A stretch of 64,000 nt of DNA from Eledone cirrhosa (taxonomy: Eukaryota), in assembly GCA_964016885.1 (NCBI GenBank), contig OZ024757.1, forward strand, positions 41,850,001 through 41,914,000, written 5' to 3'. Both the position numbers and the translations under genes were made by a program. Positions 1,299 through 55,600 of the stretch are shown here, in pieces. Positions within the stretch are counted from its first letter, which is position 1. Each line of letters opens with the position of its first letter. Below the pieces are notes generated by a model. That model was given only the letters and a program-made list of their open reading frames with translations, made no database searches and was not told the DNA's origin.

Positions 1299-1414
1299 AG
1301 AAAAAGGTTCAGGACCCCGACAGCAGAGCTCAAGCCGTTTCAACGGCTATTTGAGTTCAGAAATAGTCGTCAAAATGGCTTGAGCTCTGATGTTGGGGTC
1401 CTAAACCTTTTCCT
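1299..1414. repeat. Long palindrome (54-bp arms, 8-nt loop) made of two inverted hammerhead 3' halves, embedded in (TA)n
   Basis: Arms 1299-1352 and 1361-1414 are reverse complements with 8 mismatches by hand alignment. The minus strand of the left arm reads tGAAA-cggc-ttgagctct-gctg-TC-ggggt. Confidence 0.85.
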
Positions 1415-2355: not shown

Positions 2356-2475
2356 TTAATCTGTTATTTTAATAAATAGTTATATATATATATATATAGC
2401 GAGGGAAAAGTGGCAAGGAACCAGGTGGACCATAACGCACCAAAGTACTCAATACTTAGGGTAGTAGAGTGGGTA

Positions 2476-2592
2476 ATAGGAGTAAGTAAGACCCCGACGG
2501 CTGAGCTCAAGCCATTTCGACGGCTAATTCCAGTACAGAATTAGCCGTCGAAACGGTTTGAGCTCAGCCGTCGGAGTCTTACTTACTCCTAT
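2476..2592. repeat. Long palindrome (55-bp arms, 7-nt loop) of two inverted hammerhead 3' halves, related to 1299-1414
   Basis: Arms 2476-2530 and 2538-2592 have 3 mismatches. The plus strand reads cGAAA(2550-2553)-cggtt-tgagctc-agccg-TC(2571-2572)-ggagt. Confidence 0.9.
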
Positions 2593-4050: not shown

Positions 4051-4529
4051 AGCAGGTCAGCTGCTGACTCATCAATGTCATCAACAGGCTTAGCTGCTTC
4101 AGCGAGGTTGGAATAAATTTGGTTTGAAAACTGACTCAGCTCAGACAAATCAAGATTCTTTATATTATAAAACCAAATGAGGTTTCAGGCAGTTTGGTCG
4201 TATAAAGGTTAAATAAAATGTTTTATAGACAAACTGATGGCATAAGTGAATGTTAGCTGTGAAAGGTTAAATAAATGGAGAATGTCTTGGAGGAAAATAA
4301 AATAAAAAATAAACAAATATAAAATAAATAAATAAAATGTATACAATCTTGAATAGAACCAATTCTACTGAAGTAGGTAAAATTCTGATTTTCTGATTTT
4401 CTCTGGCAAAACTACCTTGGAATTATTTCTAAATCAATATTGCTAAATGTGTGTGTCTGTGTGTGTATACAGGTGTGTCTATGTGCATGTGTATGTATAT
4501 GTATATATATGTATATATATATATATATA

Positions 4530-4602
<73 letters not shown>

Positions 4603-4695
4603 ATATATATACATCTGTGTGTTATTGAAAGCTGAGAGAAAAGAGTACTCAATACAGAAGTAGAGTTTTAATACACATTATTCAGGCTAAATAAT

Positions 4696-4758
4696 GAGTC
4701 TTGTTACTCTGGAGTTTCACCTGTTTATCACAGGTGAAACTCCAGAGTAACAAGACTC
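4696..4758. repeat. Perfect palindrome (29-bp arms, TTATC loop) of two inverted hammerhead 3' halves
   Basis: GAGTCTTGTTACTCTGGAGTTTCACCTGT-ttatc-ACAGGTGAAACTCCAGAGTAACAAGACTC. Each strand reads acagg-t-GAAA-ctc-ca-gag-T-A-acaag. Confidence 0.9.
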
Positions 4759-5450
4759 TGGGTTGTGTAGACATAATATCTCAAGGCCTGGGGTGGGGCA
4801 GATGTGGGCTGTGGGTAGGTGGGTGGGTGGTCAGCTGTAGACTTTAATGTTTCATGTCCTGAAGGGGGGGGCAGGTGTGTGTGGATGAGGGGGAGTATGG
4901 GGGGGTCTGAAGATAAACCGACAAAATTGCATTTTAAAACAGCTTTTTCTCTTTAAACTTTGCAAAGCAAAGCATACCGTACATTTTCTGAGTTTTGTGT
5001 GATATTAATCAATACCAATCTATAAAGATCTAAAAATATATTGATTCCGTGTATTTCCAGATCTATTAAAACAAAAAGACGCATTGGCTAGAAATAATGG
5101 TTAACATTTTCTGGGGTGGGGGTGTTTTTGTGGTGTGTTTTTGTGGTGTGTTTTTGTGGTGTGTCAGTTTTGGCAGTTTTACAATAGTAAAATAATTTGT
5201 TTCATTTGAATGGGGAAAATGTAAGACATACATACTATTATAAAAATTGGACAGCTATAAAATCTAGAGCAGTAAATAAATATATATATATATATACATA
5301 CGTATATATGTGTGTATATATGTATATATATATATATTTGTATATGTATGTATATATATATATATATGTATATATGTATATTTCTATATATATATATATA
5401 TATATATTTGTGTTTGTATATATGTATGTATATATATATATATATATACA

Positions 5451-5790
5451 TGGAGGCACATGGCTTAGTGGTTAGAGCATTGGCCTTTCAATCAAAAGGT
5501 TGTGAGTTCAATTCTCAGACCAGGTGATGTGTTGTTTCCTTGAGCAAGACACTTTATTTCACATTGCTCCAGTTTACTCAGCTGTAGAAATGAGATGGTA
5601 GGGACTGGGGTCCCTATTATTCCACTGCAAAGTGGTCGTGTAGGTGCCACGGCAAAAAAGCACCCAGCACTCACTGTAAATGAGGTCGGTGTTAGGAAGG
5701 GCATCCAGCTGTAGAAATCAAGCCAGAATCAGTTCCCATCCCACCCTTGCAAGCAGGGAAAAGTGGATGTAAAATGATGATGATGATGAT
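5451..5790 (+). mobile_element. tRNA-derived SINE with CORE-like middle and RTE-derived 3' tail ending in (GAT)n
   Basis: A box TGGCTTAGTGG and B box GAGTTCAATTC. Middle CCTTGAGCAAGACACTTTA. Tail GTTAGGAAGGGCATCCAGCTGTAGAAA...GATGATGAT is shared with the 3' UTR of the LINE at 20173-20345. Confidence 0.85.
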
Positions 5791-26234: not shown

Positions 26235-26490
26235 GTGATTAAAAGGGTTTGGTGTGATAAGGTACATGAAGCTGTAAAATATTACCTCATGAAATCTCGT
26301 CCAACCCATGTTAGCATGGAAATATCAATGTAAAGACAACAATGATGATGATATATATTTCATCATCATCATCGTTTAACGTCCATCTTCCATGCTAGGA
26401 TGGGTTAGACAGGTCGTCCCATTTGACGTGAGTTGGGTCAGGTGCCTGTTGGTGTCTGTAAATTTCCGGTTGGTTTGGTAACTGGATGGT
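26235..26490. mobile_element. Two RTE-type 3' tails arranged tail-to-tail
   Basis: Plus: GTCCAACCCATGTTAGCATGGAAA...GATGATGAT (to 26352). Minus: CATCATCATCGTTTAACGTCCATCTTCCATGCTAGGATGGGTTAGAC (from 26361). Confidence 0.75.
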
Positions 26491-49600: not shown

Positions 49601-52600
49601 ATCATAAATGACTAAAACGTCATTAAAAATTGCTAAAATAACTAAACAGCATATTAAATGGCTAAAATGGCTAAAAAGGGATCATAAATGAGTTAAATGG
49701 CTAAAACGTCATCGTAAATGACTAAAACATCATCATAAATGGCTAGAACGTCGCCATAAAGGACTAAAATGTCCAAAAAGGCATCATAAATGAGTAAAAT
49801 GGCTAAAACGTCATCATAAATGACTAAAATGACAATAAAATAGCTAAAAAGGCTAATACGTCATCAGAAATGACTAAAAATGGCTAAAACTGCATCATAA
49901 ATGTCTAAAATGGCTAATACGGCATCATAAATGTCTAAAATGGCCAAAAAGGCATCATAAATGAGTAAAATAGCTAAAAATCATCATAAATGACTAAAAC
50001 GTCATTAAAAATGACTAAAACAGCATATTAACTGGCTAAAATGGCTAAAAAGGCATCATAAATGAGTAAAATAGCTAAAACATCATCATAAATGACTAAA
50101 ACGTCATTAAAAATGACTAAAGCAGCATATTAACTGGCTAAAACGGCATCATAAATGGCGGAATAAACTCTGAAATGGCCAAAACGGCATCATAAATGAG
50201 TAAAATGCCCAAAACCTCATCATAAATGACTAAAATGGCCAAAAAGGCATCATAAATGAGTAAAATGGCTAAAAAAGCTAATACGTCATCAGAAATGACT
50301 AAAAATGGCTAAAACTGCACCATAAACGTATAAAATCGCTAAAACGGCATCATAATTGAATAAAATGGCCAAAAAGGCATCGTAAATGAGTAAAATAGCT
50401 AAAACATCATCATAAATGCCTAAAACGTCATCGTAAATGACTAAAACATCATCATAAATGGCTAGAACGGCTAAAATGGCATCATAAATGAGTAAAATGC
50501 CCAAAACGTCATCATAAATGACTAAAACGTCGCCATAAATGACTGAAATGTCCAAAAAGGCATCATAAATGAGTAAAATGGCTAAAACGTCATCATAAAT
50601 GACTAAAATGACAATAAAATGGCTAAAAAGGCTAATACGTCATCAGAAATAACTAAAACATCATCATAAATGAATAAAATGGCTAAAACTGCATCATAAA
50701 CGGCTAAAATCGCTGAAACGGCATCATAAATGAGTAAAATAGCTAAAGCATCATCATAAATGACTAAAACATCATTAAAAATGACTAAAACAGCATATTA
50801 ACTGGCTAAAATGTCTAAAACGGCATCATAAATGAGTAAAATGCACAAAACGTCATCATAAATGACTAAAATGGCAAAAAAGGCATCATAAATGAGTAAA
50901 ATGCCCAAAACGTCATGTTTTAGCTATTTTTCTCATTTATGATGCCTTTTTGGCCATTTTAGTCACTTATTATGCCGTTTTAGCCATTTTAGACATTTAT
51001 GATGCAGTTTTAGCCATTTTAAGCCATTTTACACATTTATGATGCCTTTTTGAACATTTTAGTCATTTATGGCGTCGTTTTAGTCATTTATGATGATGTT
51101 TTGGGCATTTTACTCATTTATTATGCCGTTTAGAGTATTTTATGATGACGTTTTAGTCATTTACGATGACGTTTTAGCCATTTAACTCATTTATGATGTC
51201 TTTTTAGCCAGTTAATATGCTGTTTTAGTCATTTTTAATGACGTTTTAGTCATTTATGATGATGCTTTAGCTATTTTACTCATTTATGATGCCCTTTTGG
51301 CCATTTTAGTCATTTATGATGCAGTTTTAGACATTTTAGCCAGTTAATATGCATTTTACTCATTTATTATGCCGTTTAGAGTATTTTCTGATGACGTTTT
51401 AGTCATTTACGATGACGTTTTAGCCATTTAACTCATTTATGATGTCTTTTTAGCCATTTTAGACAGTTAATATGCTGTTTTAGTCATTTGTAATGACGTT
51501 TTAGTCATTTATGATGATGTTTTAGCTATTTTACTCATTTATGATGCCTTTTTGGCCATTTTAGTCATTTATGATGCAGTTTTAGTCATTTTTAGTCATT
51601 TCTGATGACGTATTAGCCTTTTTAGCCATTTTATTGTCATTTTAGTCATTTATGATGACGTTTTAGCCATTTTACTCATTTATGATGCGTTTTTGAACAA
51701 TTTAGTCATTTATGGCGACGTTTTAGTCTTTTATGATGACGTTTTGTGCATTTTACTCATTTATGATGCCGTTTTAGACATTTTAGCCAGTTAATATGCT
51801 GTTTTAGTCATTTTTAATGACGTTTTAGTCATTTATGATGATGTTTTAGCTATTTTACTCATTTATGATGCCTTTTTGGCCATTTTATTCAATTATGATG
51901 CCGTTTCAGCGATTTTAGACATATATGATGCAGTTTTAGCCATTTTTAGTCATTTATGATGACGTTTTAGTCATTTCTGATGACGTATTAGCTTTTTTCG
52001 CCATTTTACTCATTTATGATGCCTTTTTGGCCATTTTAGTCATTTATGGCGACGGTTTAGTCATTTATGATGAGGTTTTGGGCATTTGACTCATTTATGA
52101 TGCCGTTTTGGCCATTTCAGAGTTTATTTAGCCATTTATGATGCCGTTTTAGACATTTAAGTCATTTATGATGCTGTTTTAGCCATTTTAGTCTTTAATA
52201 ACGAATTTTTCGTCATTTATGATGAGATTTTAGCCAATTTACTCACTTATGATGCGTTTTTGAACAATTTAGTCATTTATGGCGACGTTTTAGTCTTTTA
52301 TGATGACGTTTTGTGCATTTTACTCATTTATGATGCGTTTTAGACTTTTTTAGCAGTTAATATGCATTTTTAGCATTTATGATGAGGTTTTAGTCATTTA
52401 AGATGAGTTTTAGCATTTAATTTATTTATGCGTTAATTTTNNNNNNNNNNNNNNNNNNNNNNNNNNNNNNNNNNNNNNNNNNNNNNNNNNNNNNNNNNNN
52501 NNNNNNNNNNNNNNNNNNNNNNNNNNNNNNNNNNNNNNNNNNNNNNNNNNNNNNNNNNNNNNNNNNNNNNNNNNNNNNNNNNNNNNNNNNNNNNNNNNNN

Positions 52601-55600
52601 NNNNNNNNNNNNNNNNNNNNNNNNNNNNNNNNNNNNNNNNAACGTTTTAGTCATTTCTGATGACGTATTAGCCTGTTTAGCCATTTTACTCATTGATGAT
52701 GAGGTTTTGGGCATTTTGCTCATTTATGATGCCGTTTTTGCCATTTCAGAGTTTATTTAGCCAATTATTATGCCATTTTAACCATTTAATATGCTGTCTT
52801 AGTCATTTTAGTCATTTATGATGACGTTTTAGTCATTTATGATGATGTTTTAGCTATTTTATTCATTTATGATGCCTTTTTGGCAATTTTAGTCATGTAT
52901 GATGTCGTTTTAGCCATTTTACTCATTTATGATGCTTTTGGGCCATTTTAGTCATTTATGGCGAGGTTTTAGTCATTTATGATGAGGTTTTGGGAATTTT
53001 TCTCATTTATGATGCCGTTTTTAGCCATTTCAGAGTCAATTTAGCCATTTACGATGGCGTTTCAGCCATTTCAGTCATTTATGTAGCTGTTTTATCCATT
53101 TTAGACATTTATAATGACGTTTAAGTCATTTATTATGACGATTTAGCCATTTTAAACCATTCATGATGCCCTTTTTGGCCATTTTAGACATTTATCATGC
53201 CGTTTTATTAATCATAAATGACTAAAACGTCATCATAAATGGCTATAAAGGCATCATATATGAGTAAAATGGCTAAAACATCATCGTAAATGACTAAAAC
53301 GGGTAAAACGGCATCATAAATGAGTAAAATGCCCAAAACGTCATCATAAATGACTAAATGGCTTAAAAGGCATAATAAATGAGTAAAATGCGCTAAAACG
53401 TCATTCATAAATGACAAAAATGACTCTAAAAAGCCTAATACGTCATCATAAATGACTAAAAATGGCCCAAAAGGCATCATAAATGAGTAAAACATCATTA
53501 TAAATGGCTAAAACGACATCATAAATGGCTAAAACGGCATCATAAATGACTAAAAATGGCTAAAATTGCATCATAAATGTCTAAAATGGCTTCATAAATG
53601 ACTAATATGGCCAGAAATGCATCATAAATGAGTAAAATCGCTAAAACGTCATCATAAATGACTAAAACGGCATCATAAATGACTAAAAATGGCTAAAACT
53701 GCATCATAAATGTCTAAAATGGCTTCATAAATGACTAAAATGGCCAGAAATGCATCATAAATGAGTAAAATCACTAAAACGTCATCATAATCGTCTAAAA
53801 TAGAGAAAAAAGCATCATAAATAAGTTAAAATGGCTAAAACCGTGATCGTCAATGACTAAAACGTCATCATAAATGACTAAAAAATGGCTAAAACTGCAT
53901 CATAAATGTCTAAAATGGCTTATAAAACGGCATCATAAAATGAATATAAATGGCCAAAAAAGGCATCATAAATGAGTAAAATAGCTAAAACATCATCATA
54001 AATGACTAAAACGTCATTAAAAATGACTAAAATGATTAAAACAGCATATTAAATGGCTAAAATGGCATCAATAAATGACTAAAACGTCATCATGAATGAC
54101 TAAAAAATGGCTAAAACTGCATCATAAGTGTCTAAAATGGCAAAAAGGCATCATAAATCAGTAAAATAGCTAAAACATCATCATAAATGACTTAAACGTC
54201 ATCATAAATGAGTAAAAATGGCTAAAACTGCATTATAATTGTCTAAAATGGCGAAAAAAGCATCATAACTAAGTAAAATGGCTAAAACGTGATCGTCAAT
54301 GACTAAAACGTCATCATAAATGACTAAAAAATGGCTAAAACTGCATCATAAATGTCTAAAATGGCGTAAAACGGCATCATAAATGAATAAAATGGCCAAA
54401 AAGGCATCATAAATGAGTAAAATAGCTAAAACATCATCATAAATGACTAAAAACGTCATTAAAAATGACTAAAATGATTAAAACAGCATATTAAATGGCT
54501 AAAATGGCATCATAAATGACTAAAACGTCATCATGAATGACTAAAAATGGCTAAAACTGCATCATAAGTGTCTAAAATGGCAAAAAGGCTTAATCAAATC
54601 AGTAAAATAGCTAAAACATCATCATAAATGACTTAAACGTCATCATAAATGAGTAAAAATGGCTAAAACTGCATTATAATTGTCTAAAATGGCGAAAAAA
54701 AGCAGTCATAAATAAGTAAAATGGCTAAGAAACGTGATCGTCAATGACTAAAACGGCTTAAAACGGCATCATAAATGAGCTAAAATGATCAAAACCTCAT
54801 CATAAATGACTAAAACCGTCGCCATAAATGACCTAAAATGGCCAAAAAGGCATCATAAATGAGTAAAATAGCTAAAGCATCATCATAAATGACTAAAACG
54901 TCATTGAAAATGACTAAAATGACTAAAACAGCAAATAACTGGATAAAACGGCATCATAAATGACTAAAATGGCCAAAAAGGCCTCATAAATGAGTAAAAT
55001 GGCTAAAACGTCATTATAAATGATAAAAATGACCCTAAAAAGGCTAATTACGTCATCATAAATGACTAAAAATGCCGGAAAGAGCATCATAAATGAGTAA
55101 AACGTCATTCTGAATGACTAAAATGGCTAAAACGTCATCATAATGACTTTAATGGATAAAACGGCATCAGAAATGGCTAAAATGGCCAAAAAAGCATCAT
55201 AAATGATTAAAAATGGCTAAAACGTCATCATGAATGACTAAAACGTCACATAAATGACTAAAATGGCTAAAATAATAGCATCATAAATGATTTAAATGGC
55301 TAAAACCGCATCGTAAATGGCTAAATAAACTCTGAAATAGCTAAAACGCCATCATAAATGAGTAAAATTGGCTAAAAACGTCATCATAAATGATAAAAAT
55401 GACCCTAAAAGGCTAATACGTCATCATAAATGACTAAAATGGGTAAAACAGCATCATAAATGGCTAAATAAACTCTGAAATGGCTAAAACGGCATCATAA
55501 ATGAGTAAAATGCCCAAAACCTCATCATAAATGACTAAAACGACGCCATAAATGACTAAAACGGCCAAAAAGGCATCATAAATGAGTAAAATGGCTAAAA

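Follow-up and report, generated by a model that had tools for sequence, protein, structure and literature searches.

The perfect palindrome at 4696-4758 of the window analysed here, a stretch of 64,000 nt from Eledone cirrhosa (contig OZ024757.1), was traced back to a real and abundant family of hammerhead ribozymes that the Rfam models miss, and its inversion point was placed on helix II of that ribozyme to single-base precision. The locus itself is inactive debris. We lean towards reading it as the 3' stub of a repeat whose mirror half was made at insertion, when a presumed Penelope-like reverse transcriptase folded back at helix II. A fold-back stub is likely a known sort of genomic debris, the mechanistic detail in this case being that the mirror turns at a ribozyme hairpin.

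The palindrome comprises 63 bases with arms of 29 bp (4696-4724 and 4730-4758), which are exact reverse complements of each other around the 5-nt loop TTATC, as the first-pass annotation had claimed. About 1.6e-10 inverted repeats of this quality would be expected by chance per 64 kb, and the fold reached -53.3 kcal/mol (z -12.4), with none of 200 shuffles being equally good. Each arm represents the 3' half of a type I hammerhead and runs from a helix II strand (ACAGG) via U, GAAA, a 4-bp helix III with the 2-nt loop CA and the triplet GUA to a helix I strand (ACAAG); the first-pass annotation had already read the arm correctly in this way, yet it had overlooked that the centre of the palindrome is helix II of the parent and that the copy continues for about 85 nt more to a (TA)n tract. 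Of the 29 paired bases, five (4720-4724 with 4730-4734) belong to this native helix II, leaving a duplicated part of 24 nt. In the native 3' half on the minus strand, the U lies at 4719, GAAA at 4718-4715, helix III at 4715-4706 with its loop at 4711-4710, and the GUA triplet at 4707-4705, so that the would-be cut falls between 4705 and 4704, followed by the helix I 3' strand at 4704-4699. Shuffling of the arm produced a half-hammerhead in 28 of 20,000 cases. Since a relaxed scan gave 15 matches in the window, mostly with weak helices, the half motif by itself is not diagnostic. Sequence search and blastn revealed no second copy of the arm in the window. A microRNA identity of the hairpin was rejected, as only sub-threshold matches of the miRNA type were obtained (Rfam mir-2041, 43.6 bits against a cut-off of 70), which we attribute to the fold.

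The locus cannot be a ribozyme, because its CUGAUGA half has been replaced and neither the palindrome nor the roughly 280 nt upstream of each arm contain a CTGANGA box. The CUGANGA box that defines a type I hammerhead upstream of helix II is accordingly missing, and the 24-nt duplicate occupies the place that this box and the helix I 5' strand hold in the parent. If transcribed, the locus would be expected to form a 29-bp hairpin burying the remaining half-core, and self-cleavage would not be expected. The features of this copy, together with those of other elements discussed below, are compiled in the table.

Table. Features of the 4612-4758 copy, its flanks and comparable elements in the window.
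Feature	Position	Strand	Basis
(TA)n-rich microsatellite adjoining the 3' end of the element	4492..4611	.	tandem repeat, period 2
3' tail of the repeat family, downstream of the hammerhead	4612..4695	-	contig depth
Native hammerhead 3' half	4696..4719	-	sequence; peak family depth in bin 4700-4721
Helix II of the parent (stem 5 bp, loop 5 nt), palindrome centre and turning point	4720..4734	-	contig ends
24-nt inverted duplicate of 4696-4719	4735..4758	+	exact reverse complement
Unique flank	4759..5270	.	depth 8.6 (X1), 4 (X2), 0 (X4) in bins 4766-4985
Second element: (TA)n, tail, palindrome 2479-2589	2399..2589	.	3 mismatches in 55-bp arms
Third, older palindrome related to 2479-2589	1302..1411	.	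82% self-inverted identity
Intact-looking type I hammerhead, other sequence family	16773..16854	+	only complete descriptor match in the window

Public contigs and reads of four of seven listed runs, representing at most three samples, were aligned to 4612-5270 at 80% likeness. Runs X1 and X2 derive from one sample and X1-X3 possibly from the source sample of the assembly itself, X4 represents a second organism, and X5 consists of raw reads from another sample under the same species label. Altogether, 3459 (X1), 3401 (X2), 1421 (X4) and 1437 (X5) records were aligned. High depth was confined to 4612 to about 4760, with single-copy depth from 4766 on; over the tail, the summed X1 contig depth ranged from 2,580 to 57,070, compared with 8.6 in the unique flank, which contained no family sequence. 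A contig of 572 nt (4729-5270), present in X1 and X2, connects the right arm to this flank with 0 differences; as it begins at 4729, it spans the right arm only and not both, and no contig bridging both arms with 0 differences was found among the listed pieces. Other copies of the family also enter (AT)n at the opposite end, as seen from loose ends before 4631 in X1 and X2, and the (TA)n tract at 4492..4611 is likely the insertion target. No target-site duplication was visible at the 4612-4758 copy, the compared flanks having no repeat in common.

Contigs and reads of all four runs stack on 4612-4734 and depart from the window at 4723-4734. In total, 469 loose-end rows were obtained; of the 24 listed, 11 lay behind 4723-4734, and ten of these contained the reverse complement of CTGATGA, the remaining row showing a one-letter variant, while most of the box-bearing rows continued with helix-I-like letters. 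Behind 4734, where 148 (X1), 154 (X2) and 124 (X4) contigs as well as 319 reads (X5) left the window, the loose ends represent the reverse complement of CTTGT, CTGATGA and C, directly continuing the letters of the window. The helix I partner of ACAAGA is present there in X1, X2 and X4, and the X5 row diverges after the box. Among the listed contig pieces, 13 of 24 terminate at 4734-4735. Because the family copies agree with the window as far as 4734 and continue into the CTGATGA box, 4720-4734 was identified as the parent's own helix II. A stemless parent with CUGAUGA inside the loop region was ruled out, since the loose ends put the box outside helix II.

A further set of loose ends behind 4723-4724 (52, 60 and 48 contigs in X1, X2 and X4, respectively) represents the reverse complement of CTGATGA, T and CCTGT with a different loop, and one contig, found in X1 and X2, reads CTTGT-CTGATGA-T-CC directly. 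It was in this set that the parent predicted by the first-pass annotation, close to CTTGT-CTGANGA-T-CCTGT-(loop)-ACAGG-T, was recovered, the upstream sequence examined containing both CTTGT-like letters and CTGANGA. The single unseen parent that had been envisaged gave way, however, to a family on hundreds of contigs and in a second organism too.

The parent is plainly a multi-copy family of type I hammerheads, abundant and occurring in two organisms, with the reservation that contig counts do not equal copy numbers. Its boxes CUGANGA and GAAA (4718-4715) flank helix II, and, paired by eye, helix I matches ACAAGA past the cut site, helix II comprises 5 bp, helix III 4 bp, and the cut site is GUA (NUH). 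At the base of helix II, the family lacks the G10.1-C11.1 pair, with C or U after the box and C (58% of the X1 depth) or U before GAAA. The hammerhead core lies about 100-125 nt from the (TA)n end of the family, and at about 9 nt upstream of this core the consensus fades out. Two X4 contigs nevertheless reach about 1.3 kb beyond the core on that side. Opposite-strand joints deduced from the mapping were excluded, since the palindrome lets one record align to either arm. Single contigs displayed other junctions of the family, with turns at or slightly upstream of the CTGATGA box, as well as a junction of two arms through a short (TA)n. A metagenome scan for box and arm yielded two loci, one a repeat in a coding-like stretch and the other in DNA of 57% G+C; neither had a family context, and both were discarded as chance matches. 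Viral contigs gave no match to the 4696 arm or to the 2479 family, and no match was found in prokaryote genomes.

Self-comparison of the non-satellite part of the window revealed five palindromic stretches, three of which (4696-4758, 2479-2589 and 1302-1411) possess a central hairpin followed by GAAAC, helix III and GTH and lack CTGANGA. In 2479-2589 and 1302-1411 alike, the hairpin stands directly before GAAAC, helix III and GTC. As a global alignment of the elements at 4612 and 2399 was uninformative, an anchored comparison was used instead: both contain an exact 12-mer located 71 nt from the antisense GAAA box, and this 12-mer has only two copies in the window, one per element. Alignment of 1302-1411 with 2470-2600 resulted in a mean column identity of 76% with the centre in common; the older palindrome has (TA)n on both sides, and the two elements differ at their ends. 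In shuffles of the arms of these two longer palindromes, the half motif appeared in 206 and 203 of 20,000 cases (about 1%). From their letters, both palindromes appear to follow the layout of 4696-4758, which would thus occur in at least two sequence families. Moreover, further loci that turn at this point are suggested by six of the 24 listed pieces, one of them from the second organism, which cross the centre to 4750-4758 and each show 12-18 differences to the window; two of these pieces extend 31 letters to either side of the loop centre, and none has 31 aligned letters past 4734. The other junctions seen in single contigs include head-to-head ones near the core.

The motif at 16773-16854 had been described as having the same geometry as the 4696 arm. 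The GUA triplet, the U ahead of GAAA and the length of loop III (2 nt) do agree, but helix III comprises 3 bp rather than 4 bp, and kinship is unsupported, since blastn found no similarity between the motif and 4612-4734. No Rfam match to the region 16740-16900 was obtained at E<=10, and no hammerhead family was present among the best 150 of 211 Rfam matches to the window. The fold of the motif gave a z of -0.51. It has a 4-bp helix II and a long loop II, and its helix III, ACC-GT-GGT, could pair fully as a dimer via G-U pairs. The motif is an analogy to the 4696 arm, neither its parent nor its relative.

Overall, the window is AT-rich and microsatellite-rich and has the look of animal DNA. 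A satellite of about 30 kb (c. 31650-61000) with units of 21-30 nt and higher-order periods shows several orientation switches, visible as sign changes of the AT skew, and contains a 200-N gap near 52440-52640. A homogeneous minisatellite with 18 copies of a 49-bp unit (96% identity) is located at 17668-18549. At 26299-26410, an imperfect palindrome (75%) about a (ATG)n/(CAT)n centre resembles two opposed short-repeat ends, and no half-hammerhead was seen in it. A tRNA-like head (Rfam tRNA, 29.2 bits, 5461-5518) beside a microsatellite at 5450-5570 is probably part of a tRNA-derived SINE. Decayed reading frames occur on the minus strand at 20540-21300, the upstream one with a weak PHD-finger match; the second has no Pfam match and resembles what we take to be the C-terminal part of a LINE protein.

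For the origin of the palindrome, we infer a route of five steps. A nick in the (TA)n tract would prime cDNA synthesis along the plus strand from about 4612. The template would be uncut RNA, because the copy continues across the GUA cut site (4705/4704). Once both helix II strands had been copied, the cDNA end at 4730-4734 would pair with 4720-4724, self-templated synthesis would lead back across 24 nt, and the cDNA end would finally be joined to the other end of the target at 4759. The layout is in support of this route, with 4612-4734 on the minus strand standing head to head with 4720-4758 on the plus strand. Features of Penelope-like elements (PLEs) found here include 5' truncation with an adjacent inverted head-to-head copy, a hammerhead near the 3' end, and abutment on (TA)n in the window, X1 and X2. 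Membership of the family in this group is likely, judged from these features; none of the 150 window ORFs scanned (156 selected) matched a reverse transcriptase or GIY-YIG domain in Pfam, as expected for a stub. Against fold-back by such an element stand a seed stem of just 5 bp, the lack of a reverse transcriptase or GIY-YIG sequence linked to the family, and the fact that neither a target-site duplication nor an empty site was seen. The tail departs from the X1 majority at 8 of 73 places (4623-4695), and if these differences arose after insertion, the identity of the arms would speak against an origin at the time of insertion. The inverted arm stops 9 nt past the cut site, approximately where helix I of the parent ends, which a DNA event with two switches would give likewise.

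The age of the palindrome bears directly on this point. With zero differences between the arms, the 95% upper bound on their divergence is 9.8% if all 29 sites are counted and 11.7% for the 24 copied ones. The recent event that the first-pass annotation had deduced from the identical arms is therefore not established, as up to about 10-12% divergence is allowed and the tail differs as stated. Compared to the X1 majority, the left arm differs at 1 of 29 places, and the contrast with the tail is not significant (Fisher p 0.44; 40 of 101 rows listed). If the palindrome were as old as the insertion, identical arms would have a probability of about 0.005 at 11% divergence and of 0.09 at 5%. If the tail differences post-date the insertion, the arms probably formed later than it or were homogenised; as subfamily traits, those differences would not conflict with identical arms.

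Identical arms beside a more diverged tail are accounted for by a later correction of a quasi-palindrome, i.e., insertion of an intact short copy, followed by a strand switch during replication or repair that left at helix II, returned at helix I and perfected the repeat. A type I hammerhead is by nature an imperfect inverted repeat, this class of mutation is documented in yeast (available text of PMC3820800), and the arm ends at about the end of the parent's helix I, its outer bound lying within about 3 nt of it and its inner bound being helix II. Since the family consensus decays beyond helix I (agreement of 0.45-0.55 in the X1, X2 and X4 rows behind 4733-4734), unique flank past 4758 would be expected on this account as well. 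However, the roughly 34 kb of the window outside the satellite contain three such palindromes but just one intact hammerhead, a high number for what would be a rare error of replication; PLEs are known to leave this head-to-head product on insertion, according to the available text of PMC3846280 and PMC8557442; and the arms of 1302-1411 have decayed to 82%, so that homogenisation is not ongoing there. We consider such a correction unlikely. We would rate only slightly lower a single fold-back in a master copy, followed by amplification of a short palindromic non-autonomous subfamily that includes the 4696 locus. Of the six pieces crossing the centre, three end at 4757-4758, as such a subfamily would predict, and the palindromes 1302-1411 and 2479-2589 are related and have a common centre. 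Yet pieces with longer arms would stop at 4758 regardless, the window being unique beyond, most of the listed pieces and all 11 listed loose-end rows at 4723-4734 are non-palindromic, and the ends of the 1302 and 2479 elements differ.

By far the least probable is a misassembly in which two family copies of opposite orientation were joined at the 5-nt helix II strand. The only listed contig with 0 differences does start at 4729, which also fits an intact copy of a subfamily whose loop ends in C, and X1-X3 may stem from the assembly's own sample; but assemblers do not make 5-nt joins, the resolved satellite of about 30 kb and the 200-N gap would point to a long-read scaffolded assembly, other contigs cross the centre, and two further palindromes of this kind lie in the window. 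Alternatively, the turn at helix II may be correct and the family be a non-LTR retrozyme or another short passenger repeat instead of the terminal repeat of an autonomous PLE, which would be compatible with fold-back and which we regard as improbable to the same degree as the quasi-palindrome correction. No ORF is linked to the family, and its consensus fades just upstream of the core; animal retrozymes include some with type I hammerheads whose short helix III is stable and whose helix II has a U-U pair at its base (PMC7229834, available text), and animal retrozymes have been proposed as derivatives of PLEs (10.64898/2026.07.22.740005, available text). On the other hand, the tandem units of 150-450 bp are absent at the 4612-4758 locus, where, as in the window as a whole, the copy is single, and single copies that are scattered over (TA)n sites and accompanied by an inverted partner resemble the PLE insertions described in the available text of PMC8557442.

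Building on fold-back at insertion, helix II of a Penelope hammerhead might act as a built-in turn-around signal, with the cDNA snapping back and priming an inverted copy. We put this forward tentatively and think it rather doubtful. If true, it would give weakly cleaving ribozymes a non-catalytic job, explain the palindromes at PLE head-to-head junctions and agree with the reported in vitro result that insertion tolerates mutations of the core, and each such insertion would seed a family-specific hairpin RNA. Were the turn at helix II general, both the role of PLE hammerheads and the junction palindromes would become testable.

According to the available text of the studies concerned, PLE insertions frequently lack their 5' part, lie next to an inverted copy and show a preference for microsatellites, with a (TA)n bias in the Naiad, Hydra and, by hypothesis, Neptune clades, and the role of their hammerheads is called unclear (PMC8557442); their target-site duplications are variable and often not discernible. 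Palindromes at head-to-head inverted junctions have been interpreted as self-priming on an antisense template, with no hairpin named in that text (PMC3846280). PLEs carry type I hammerheads, some as opposite-strand pairs (PMC4209133), and in vitro, uncut RNA was the main substrate for insertion, mutants of the core not being impaired (PMC11167929). The available text of PMC13282606 and PMC6431247 contains nothing on junctions, and in the titles, abstract openings and passages of the literature searched, helix II was not found named as a turning point of PLEs.

Like the dispersed hammerhead group described before, the parent family has type I topology, single motifs in large families and a near-palindromic helix III suited to dimers. 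While the consensus of that group combines a helix II of 7-8 bp with a G10.1-C11.1 pair and one additional base following A9, the parent family has 5 bp in helix II, pyrimidines at 10.1 and 11.1 and 4 bp in helix III, and the locus lacks the CUGANGA box. The parent is also similar to the axolotl retrozyme hammerhead HHR_Amex2, a type I motif with a tolerated U-U pair at the base of helix II, whose cleavage, according to the available text, is weak in the monomer and improves in the dimer (PMC7229834). Unlike retrozymes, described there as tandem units of 150-450 bp expressed as circles, 4612-4758 is a single inverted stub. With the template switches at quasi-palindromes (PMC3820800, available text), it has in common that an imperfect inverted repeat was perfected by copying one arm from the other; in contrast to those, described as rare errors, the product recurs here in a retroelement family and matches an insertion signature. 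The closest resemblance in layout is to endonuclease-bearing PLE insertions (Arkhipova et al. 2013, PMC3846280; Craig et al. 2021, PMC8557442; available text), which likewise display a short 3' stub with a shorter head-to-head inverted partner, a microsatellite target and no clear target-site duplication, although no ORF or second direct repeat was seen at 4612-4758 and the inverted partner comprises just 39 nt, overlap included. Where the two copies overlap at the junction, by 15 nt at 4720-4734 compared with 15 bp in the PLE Pen2a_Av, the shared stretch is in our case helix II of a hammerhead, a link that the available text of these two studies does not draw.
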